Below are positions 46,101-49,100 of a stretch of DNA of 64,000 nucleotides, in pieces; within the stretch, counting starts at the first letter, position 1, and the number at the start of each line of letters is the position of its first letter. Source of the DNA: Azolla caroliniana (lineage: Eukaryota > Plantae > Polypodiophyta); assembly GCA_043228905.1 (NCBI GenBank), contig JBHGNT010000034.1, forward strand, positions 62,001 to 126,000, written 5' to 3'. The translations under genes and the position numbers were made by a program. Below the pieces are notes generated by a model. That model saw only the letters and a program-made list of their open reading frames with translations, was not told the origin of the DNA and did no database searches.

Positions 46101-49100
46101 ACCCCGTACTACCCCCAAGGTAATGGTCTTGTTGAATCCACAAATAAAACCCTTTAGAACATTCTTAAGAAAATCGTCAATGAGAATCGTACGGATTGGG
46201 ACAAGGCTTATCGCACGACCTTTAAAACCAGTATCGGCTCAATGCCTTTTTGGCTAGCTTACGAGTACATATAGCCGAACGATTACCGGAACCAGAATTT
46301 GAACACCAACGTCTGGTCCAATTGCTCGAACTCGGAGAACAGCGAATTACCAGTCTGGCTCAATTGGAGCACGGCTAGAGACGAAGGAAAGCCTTCGTTG
46401 ACAGACATTGTTGGATACCGGACAAAACTTTTGAAATCGGGCAACCGGTCCTGGGTTTCCAAACAAAACTCGGGGCTATGTCCGGCAAGCTTCGATTCCG
46501 GTGGACATGGCCTTTTCTGGATCATCGACACGTACAAAGACACCTTTCAACTCGGCACATTGGCCGGCGAAGCGCTGCTGCATTGGGTCAATGGGTTTCA
46601 CTTGGAACCGTACCGTGGAACGACACCACCTAACCCCTTTACCAACCAACGGCATGATTTCGACCAAACGATGTTAGGTGGAACAGAAGATTACGAGGGC
46701 ATCACGCCTCGATTACGGTAACAACCCTACCTACCGGCCACGTGTACAATATTATTGTAAAAAAAAAAAGGAAAAAGAAAAAAAAGAGAGACCCGCACAC
46801 TATTTAAAGCCGAGGTACAATGTTCAAGAAAAGCAAGTACAAACTGTTCACACGACGCGTGGCCCTTAACTCTCAGCATGGCAGGCAAGATTCTGAATCT
46901 AGGGCACAAGGGCGTGTCTCAAGAACCGAGGCATGCACACAAAAACATCACCAACAGCCAAAACCACCACACTTGCAAGAGCTCTCAAGCTTTCGCTCCT
47001 TTTGCGCAGAACTCTCTCACTCGCCTACTCTCTCTAACCAAGCTTTCTCTCGTTCTCCATCTCCACAACCTTCTCCCTATCTACCTGACTCTCTAGCCCT
47101 CACCATGCCGCTCAAAGTCTCTAAAGAACTCCGCACCTGGATGTCCGGACACGGCCTCTCAGGATATCTCAACGTCTTCGATGCACCTCCCCACCCAGAA
47201 GCTCAGGCCATGTCCAGAAGGATCCACCCTGACACCATCTCCAACAACATGATCCAAGCAACGCTTCATCTGGAGAGGGGAGGTGAACACATCTTGGAAC
47301 AACATTTTGGAGAGTATTCACTCTCGGGAAAAGCTCATCGCACGCATGGAGGTCCCAATGAGTTCTTTGGGAACCTAGCCCATTTCCTCCTCGAGTACGC
47401 CTGCATTCACGCAAACCCCTATGGCATGCCGAAGAAAAAAGCAGGATTGATTATTACGGCCTACCGCGGCGGAGCAATTGATTGGGGGATCATCACCGGT
47501 GAAGGTGTTTGAGCGGTCATCACTTCTTTTCAATCAGGGAAACGATTTTTACCCGTACTAGCACAATACACTGCCGTGCTGTACCATCCCCAAGCACAAC
47601 CACCACGATAGACATTGGTGCTCCCTGCTCCACCCCCTAGGGCTAAACGACAACGAACGTTGCAGTTGTCGCATGAAGAGTGGTAAGATGACGATAACCA
47701 GGCCCTCTCCACAACCCAAGAAGAGCAAAACACCGAAGACGGGGACAACATCACTATACGCGTTTGTGATAAGACGGCACGGGCAATACCCTTACCTTGC
47801 CTGACACCACCCTCGAAACCAGCCAAACAGGCCGAACAGCCAAAGTCTGTTCTTGAGGTCCCATGGTTAATGGAGACCGAACGACAACAGGAGCGCGAAA
47901 AACAAGCATCCAAGTAGAGTAAGGATGGAACGACGGATGTCAACAAACAATTGGTTACCATCCCGAAGGAAGCTGCCGCGATCGTGACAACCACCACGAT
48001 GGATCCCAACAGACCTATTGAGCAAGGCCAGCAATCACGATTCTCGGAGGATGAAGTACTAACCTTCCGTGATCTGCCAGCAGAAGCATTCGAGCTCGGA
48101 GCAATTTTGCAACATGGCACGGCATACGAGATCATCGACTTTTTGGCTCGTCTCCAAGTAGCTGCTGCGTCCCGCATGGCCCAGGAACACTCCGAGCAGC
48201 AGGTTATAGAAAGGGCCTTAGACAAGGAGCCGGCTTCAAATGATGAGCCGAAACTACGGAAGGCTGGACGCAAACGGGCCACAAAGAAACACCGAACACC
48301 CATTGAGCTTCCAGATCTCAACACGACATTGGTCGAAGGTTACCAGGAATTGGACAGAGCGACGCGTGCTGCCAAAGACATGGCTACCCGTAACAAAGAG
48401 ACAAGCAAGCAAGCAAAGGCTGACACAGATCTATGGCAGGCCTCTGAAGCACAACGGGCCAAATTAGAGCAGCAGCTTCGAACACGGGATCACCCACCCC
48501 CGCTCCCTCTACCGCCTCCCCCTTCTACCTCCAATGACCAATCAACGCAGACGAACTTACCACATCGGCCCGAACAGACCAACATGGCGACATGGACGGA
48601 CCAGCCCGGTGCGCGCGAACGGACCGACACAGCCGTTCAGACCATGGTGCCTTGCCCTGTCGCTCTGGCGACAACGACCGTGCAAACCGACGAAGATATT
48701 GGTGGAACCATTCGCTAGTACAAAGAAGAGATTGCCGTGCACAAAGCCATTGCAGAAAAAGCGAAAGAACGCTACGAGCACGCACAAGCGGAGGCCGTCA
48801 AAAGCAAGGAGCAAGCCGTGCACAAGGAAGCCGAACTTACGAAGACACTACAAGAATAGACGGCTAAGGTCTAGGAGGCAGAAAAAAAGCGGCCGACTCT
48901 ATTACGTCCATACAGGACATTGCGGCCGCACAAATCAACTCATTGAACAGAACTCGTGGAAATGCAGGTACAATCGAGCAAATTTTTGCAAAAATACAAA
49001 GACGTTGAAAACAAGCGCATCCGGTTATTTGATGAGCTCCACAAACACAAAATGGATATTGTCCACGAACGCGAACAGACGTAAAAAAAGCACATAAAAG

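Follow-up and report, generated by a model that had tools for sequence, protein, structure and literature searches.

The evenly spaced LC8-type motifs in the extra protein of a decayed plant retrotransposon, found in 64,000 nucleotides of Azolla caroliniana DNA (the window), are with reasonable probability the remains of a conserved LC8-binding array that stabilised a chromatin factor of predicted VANC/PMD-like type. That LC8 is bound in the cell appears highly probable to us, a role in parallel dimerisation or oligomerisation and not in transport is likely, and the chances that the N-terminal domain of this protein would bind DNA and counteract silencing are about even. The best reading of the models is a nuclear VANC/PMD-like coiled-coil accessory protein, which one clade would dimerise via host LC8.

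The retrotransposon and its broken extra ORF

The element (39767..49972, + strand) was delimited by Pfam domains, by OTCace exons on either side and by a match between LTR starts. Retrotrans_gag, RT_RNaseH and Integrase_H2C2 at 40.7-44.6 kb stand in the Ty3/gypsy order; the initial annotation likewise assigned the motifs to the extra ORF of a gypsy retrotransposon. The LTR starts at 39767 and 49927 match over 46 bp only (93%), the 3′ LTR being interrupted by other DNA. Past these 46 bp, the DNA at 49973-51400 carries tandem repeats of 30 and 63 bp together with short inverted repeats and a tract rich in GA, and is likely another transposon. At 44550-45700 the integrase is broken by a stretch without Pfam match, probably a nested insertion, which we take to resemble the end of a LINE reverse transcriptase. 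The element lies in an intron of a plant ornithine carbamoyltransferase gene, as shown by Pfam OTCace exons on both sides; it is sense-oriented and makes the OTCase intron approximately 13 kb long, with exons at window positions 38496-39125 and 52000-52350. The element family is high-copy, with 1,158-1,680 matching contigs in each of three DNA-type runs, and only 8 diverged contigs were found in run X1, which is presumed to be RNA; no RNA record was listed for the extra ORF.

The extra ORF lies in sense orientation at the 3′ side of the element (47105..49824, + strand) and is broken: its first 691 codons contain 10 stops, the frame changes near 49180 and more stops follow. In relatives the frame is open over about 880-1075 aa. 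The ORF at 47951-48718, initially taken as the gene, is instead a stop-to-stop fragment of this longer gene. The motifs do adjoin a coiled-coil-like stretch as first described, but in the window copy a stop codon lies between the fourth motif and the coiled coil. Judged by this stop, the window copy is a dead pseudogene, unable to make the full protein.

The motif array and its conservation in relatives

Translation confirmed both the Pro run ahead of the motifs (48494..48523, + strand), which starts the disordered linker, and the exact 45-nt spacing of the anchor triplets TQT (48545), TWT (48590), VQT (48635) and VQT (48680). The four LC8-type motifs, all on the + strand, are NDQSTQTN with a canonical TQT (48533..48556), TNMATWTD with a non-canonical W (48578..48601), TDTAVQTM, which is docked in the best complex model (48623..48646), and ATTTVQTD, the last of the four (48668..48691). 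Canonical anchors, with T/V/I at −1, Q at 0 and T at +1, are present at 3/4 window sites. A match of TAVQTMVP to the 'strict' rule overlaps motif 3 and was left uncounted. In shuffles of a 115-aa region, three [TVI][QM]T anchors were obtained with P = 0.0026, and four [TV][QW]T in shuffles of a 65-aa region with P = 2e-4, the latter pattern being chosen post hoc. Of the 50 [TVI]QT triplets in all six reading frames (127,996 aa) of the window, only those of the array form a cluster of three within 60 aa.

The description as four TQT-type motifs therefore holds for three sites in the window copy, and sibling copies suggest that it once held for the fourth. At motif 2, letters of a Gln codon make up most of the sibling depth at the two sites concerned (213/368 and 316/368 in run X2, unphased), and a similar or higher share in three other runs, likewise unphased, which suggests that the W is decay in the window copy. 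Siblings also carry a variant in the −1 codon of motif 3 (192/432 of X2 depth, a third to half in other runs); this variant would spoil the anchor and counts against the LC8 reading.

The DNA between the motifs was initially described as no obvious tandem repeat, yet a weak period is found at 45 nt: the lag-45 identity of 0.44 is the best of the lags tested (P = 0.004 for any lag), and units 2 and 3 share 20/36 non-anchor bases. Since the DNA is weakly periodic at this length, the even spacing is read as the trace of an old tandem duplication, of which the array is probably the product.

The flanks were compared with LC8 preferences taken as rules from the text of PMC6607443, over 16 sites in 7 proteins, where homologous sites are not independent. 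Among flanking positions that played no part in site picking, −4 is polar in 16/16, −2 is small in 15/16 and +2 is D/E/P/G in 12/16; Pro is absent from −5 to −2 in 16/16, and −4 is acidic in 9/16 against a background of 11%. The sites thus fit the published preferences except at position −3, where a large or basic residue is rare (A 12, V 6, T 4, I 3, R 1 and K 0 among 30 distinct sites, a tally that includes eight short fragments retrieved with a query containing the motif region and excluded from the headline counts). The LC8 pattern of ELM has K or R at this position. Since −3 is mostly A/V/I/T, single sites may be weak, which suggests that they would rely on avidity. Strong binders favour a large or basic −3, and Table S4 of PMC6607443 includes several binders with Ala at −3 as well as the ITC-grade near matches QDSSTQTD, IDAATQTE, TDAITQIE and DDKNTMTD. 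The same table holds 32 non-binders, many with good TQT anchors.

Relatives were collected in several ways. The window protein, with stops read as X, retrieved four long relatives when used as a query, and 347 matches among 50%-identity representatives, of which the best 150 are considered here. To keep the motif out of the picking of relatives, an unbiased set was gathered with a profile that covers nothing but the middle helical region. Among the 20 matches of this profile to longer proteins, four stop short of the linker, nine contain a linker rich in Pro, Ser and Thr, and in seven the helix runs directly into the coiled coil. All nine linker-bearing relatives carry T[QM]T anchors, 1-4 each, and these recur at 35-50% identity. 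For the window protein and the nine relatives together, 18 such triplets were counted in 1,056 linker residues and 0 in 6,898 others. Canonical sites number 2-4 in 5/9 relatives, and the other four have one plus T-x-T variants in register; five of the nine are significant alone and the four with a single anchor are not (P 0.15-0.23). In every linker-clade relative examined the final site lies just ahead of the coiled coil.

The array is missing from other branches of the family. Two of the seven no-linker relatives do contain a single T[QM]T at the corresponding place, within helical sequence, and the distant relatives P0059 and P0191-P0194 have no anchor at all (0/5). Absence from the seven no-linker and five distant relatives means that the array is not essential to the protein family. 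No anchor was found in the fragments P0021, P0033 and P0155, which cover the same region and look frame-shifted, nor in P0064, and the one locus retrieved in a metagenome scan is short and has no linker. In a tree of 21 rows built with the linker excluded, a branch supported at 96/95 separates the 11 linker proteins from the other rows; the root is a midpoint root only, and two long branches meet. The motifs are thus kept in the whole linker clade (9/9) and lacking in its sister lineages. Three no-linker relatives (P0164, P0167 and P0169) share one IQT site, HADNIQTE, near residue 280 in their first disordered region, possibly an independent LC8 site.

The initial annotation proposed that the T/V-Q-T anchors and the 15-residue spacing should be compared with the linkers in related copies, and these two features fared differently. 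The anchors have changed less than their surroundings in the linker: 56/98 positions are identical in motif windows against 134/367 elsewhere in it (P = 2e-4, from 6 overlapping, non-independent pairs). The spacing is not conserved: canonical sites in relatives are 21, 22, 20/12 and 27/13/15 residues apart, a range from 12 to 27, and in P0157 and P0160 sites of the form D/E-A-S/G/C-T-x-T recur in a 12,12,24 register, with ATQT as the last. Each sub-lineage has its own period and the 15-residue spacing is specific to that of the window; a conserved 15-residue ruler was accordingly rejected.

Predicted structure of the extra protein

The N-terminal helical domain of about 170 aa (47105..47614, + strand) has a predicted VANC/PMD/Transposase_32-like fold, based on the model of the homologue P0007 (pLDDT 81.5 for this domain). 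Its top match among 48,161 solved chains is DNA-bound VANC21 (9lnk_A; Z 6.8, rmsd 3.8, 174 residues aligned), the sole chain at Z >= 5, with the next rows at Z 2.0; the match is below Z 8 and the identity is 6%. Foldseek placed the sister entry 9lnj at rank 2 (TMq 0.46, E 1.5). Atlas neighbours, compared via the homologues P0003 and P0007, are Transposase_32, ATHILA and PMD clusters, the TM of 0.61 for Transposase_32 being under the naming bar. None of 41 N-domain members matches PF10536, PF20167, PF03078 or PF04195 at E up to 1, and the same PMD/ATHILA/Transposase_32 Pfam families have no match in the window ORFs. Foldseek found nothing at E up to 0.001 with an 880-aa model against the PDB or with the N-terminal domain against BFVD. 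The fold match to VANC21 is suggestive, not decisive, and such a VANC/PMD-like domain, overlooked in the initial annotation, points to a chromatin role. An env-like reading was rejected, since the model consists entirely of soluble helix and disordered chain. The non-coding parts of the element showed no conspicuous array of target motifs.

The conserved middle helical region (48017..48475, + strand), recognised by alignment and by the AF2 model of P0189, forms a long helix ahead of the linker and includes a basic patch at approximately 48248-48295 that we take to be NLS-like by its pattern. That model was built from 41 sequences and has a mean pLDDT of 63. Its linker (451-496) has pLDDT < 50 and separates the helix at 392-451 from a C-terminal helix of 270 residues (499-769); the P+S+T fraction of the linkers is 0.36-0.41. 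A disordered setting for the motifs, with a coiled coil adjoining, is therefore borne out at the level of prediction. In the window, translation and the P0189 model place the long coiled-coil-like helix, followed by a conserved W-x3-W-x-AQAAELQ region from about 49342, at 48719..49570 (+ strand). The block W-x3-W-x-x-QAAEL-x-x-LRAD-x-ENR at 49342-49450 is without Pfam match and is kept even in the distant P0059/P0192 group, which is without the middle helical region. A C-terminal hydrophobic-acidic motif, I/L-L/F-x-I-L-x-E/D, is seen by eye at 49790-49821 after a long unconserved tail in all subfamilies (P0003, P0189, P0177, P0160, P0163, P0185 and P0192), and could be a second motif for host binding or activation.

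The proposed modelling with LC8 employed two window linkers (48521-48715) and an LC8 dimer of L009, an animal-like protein that was confirmed to be an LC8 and is not that of the host. With this LC8 the complex scored 0.77 and the best of three controls 0.01, and in the best run motif 3 lies against LC8 residues 35-36, 59-70 and 84, that is, it docks in the groove. The mark for this score was reached by 51/78 solved complexes and 2/108 mismatched pairs, and for eukaryotes by 39/65 novel solved pairs and 2/126 unrelated pairs, a calibration outside which peptides and disordered chains fall. Across the complex runs contact agreement was at least 0% and partner pLDDT at least 44. LC8-peptide structures are abundant, so that the docking shows likeness and not binding, and the pass is possibly a memory of solved complexes. 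In prokaryote genome assemblies 9/17 pattern matches were LC8 genes or pieces (L005, L006, L008-L010, L012-L014 and L016), three of them (L005, L006 and L012) in tandem on one 20.7-kb contig; these are most likely eukaryotic contamination. Pattern scans of viral contigs gave no LC8 gene.

Competing explanations and relation to known systems

The proposed mechanism is that two chains would pair through their own helices, and host LC8 dimers would zip the linkers in parallel, stabilising the oligomer beside the coiled coils. The N-terminal domains could then engage the element's DNA or chromatin and thereby counter silencing. Sites would have been gained by local tandem duplication in units of 12 or 15 residues, selection retaining the anchors while the spacers drifted. 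One may speculate further, and more doubtfully, that the clade captured host LC8 to assemble a VANC-like anti-silencing protein with avidity tuned by the expansion of 12-/15-residue TQT units; we hold this tentatively, at rather less than even chance.

A neutral origin would make the array a relic of 45-nt tandem duplication in a Thr-rich spacer, its likeness to LC8 sites being due to chance. The weak 45-nt DNA period, the Thr-rich linkers with their unconserved spacing, the dead window copy and the absence from sister lineages are all consistent with this; however, the anchors and their LC8-like flanks are retained at 35-50% identity in lineages with differing periods and diverged spacers, and no such triplet occurs elsewhere in the same proteins, which makes a neutral relic improbable. 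To a similarly low degree we credit functional motifs with another partner, either ATM/ATR-type phosphorylation at [ST]Q or another beta-strand-binding hub. A nuclear chromatin protein could well be a kinase target and most sites do have a TQ core, but 12/13 linker [ST]Q have T next, and TMT, VQT and T-x-T variants, none of them an [ST]Q site, occupy the same register.

LC8 binding may also be real and serve localisation, at microtubule arrays, the phragmoplast or, where plants have motile sperm, flagellar dynein, or the sequestration of LC8 away from its host partners, instead of dimerisation. Arabidopsis DLC1 is found at the phragmoplast and was proposed to keep microtubule links in the text of bioRxiv 2023.11.03.564551, and a sink is conceivable since Drosophila transposon silencing needs LC8 (PMC7861614, in the part consulted). 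Such a role is somewhat less improbable than the two preceding explanations and still unlikely: a site beside a coiled coil fits the pattern of a dimerisation hub, the basic NLS-like patch and the VANC-like domain point to the nucleus, and cytoplasmic dynein is absent from land plants. The last point, made for land plants in the text of PMC10886578 and for angiosperms in that of bioRxiv 2023.11.03.564551, also led us to reject dynein cargo transport. The earlier suggestion of an accessory protein that recruits several LC8 dimers is retained for dimerisation or scaffolding, and trafficking is unlikely.

Extra ORFs are common in plant Ty3/gypsy elements and their function is still open, according to the parts consulted of PMC7264820 and PMC6317226. 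A conserved LC8 array names a host partner for such an ORF and, combined with the VANC-like fold, favours the reading as an oligomeric chromatin regulator over that as an envelope. If LC8 capture is true, it would be the first host cofactor for a PMD/Athila-type extra ORF. The array would also supply natural TQT clients for the study of plant LC8, a protein with largely unknown dynein-free roles (bioRxiv 2023.11.03.564551, in its accessible text), and sister lineages without the linker provide a built-in control. LC8 arrays and PMD/Athila-type extra ORFs are each known; their combination in a retrotransposon was not found in the literature searched. The accessible literature, with subscription journals and bioRxiv supplements outside its scope, gave no retrotransposon-encoded LC8 client and no plant transposon case; the words 'dynein' and 'LC8' are absent from PMC11963269, and 'dynein' is absent from PMC13547354 and three supplements.

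The extra ORF resembles PMD-coiled-coil, Tr28-coiled-coil and ATHILA ORF-1 of OTA-type Ty3/gypsy elements in its place between pol and the 3′ LTR and, by the accessible text of PMC4408406, PMC6317226 and PMC11963269, in its N-terminal helical domain and long coiled coil. PMD-coiled-coil extra ORFs are described from Tat elements in the part of PMC4408406 consulted. Unlike these ORFs, the one described here has no Pfam match to the families concerned, and it possesses in addition a middle helical region and a linker of LC8 type. The best structural match, over approximately 174 N-terminal residues, is VANC21 of Arabidopsis VANDAL21 (PDB 9lnk, 9lnj); VANC21, however, is the protein of a Mutator DNA transposon, the identity is 6-10% at Z 6.8, and the aligned domain is N-terminal in the window protein. 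The accessible part of PMC13547354 reports a resemblance between VANC and MAIN, a PMD protein, and a predicted self-assembly through coiled coils for both VANC and Athila domains.

As in the viral LC8 clients rabies P, Ebola VP35 and ASFV p54, a TQT site is found in a parasite-encoded, oligomeric protein that is coiled-coil or disordered; the viral proteins differ in having one site each in Table S4 of PMC6607443, in their animal hosts and in not being retroelement accessory ORFs. With the multivalent clients ASCIZ/ATMIN, FAM83D/Chica, Chlamydomonas RSP3 and Drosophila Panoramix the extra protein shares several TQT-type anchors in a disordered region, a polar −4, a small −2, an acidic residue, Pro or Gly at +2, an adjoining coiled coil and variable spacing. 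It differs from them in being a predicted binder encoded by a plant retrotransposon, in a −3 that is rarely basic, and in a number and period of sites that vary by sub-lineage. In Drosophila, LC8 dimerises Panoramix for transposon silencing, according to the accessible text of PMC7861614. LC8 capture by the extra protein would be the mirror image of this system, since Panoramix uses LC8 to silence transposons and the extra protein would use it on the transposon's side.
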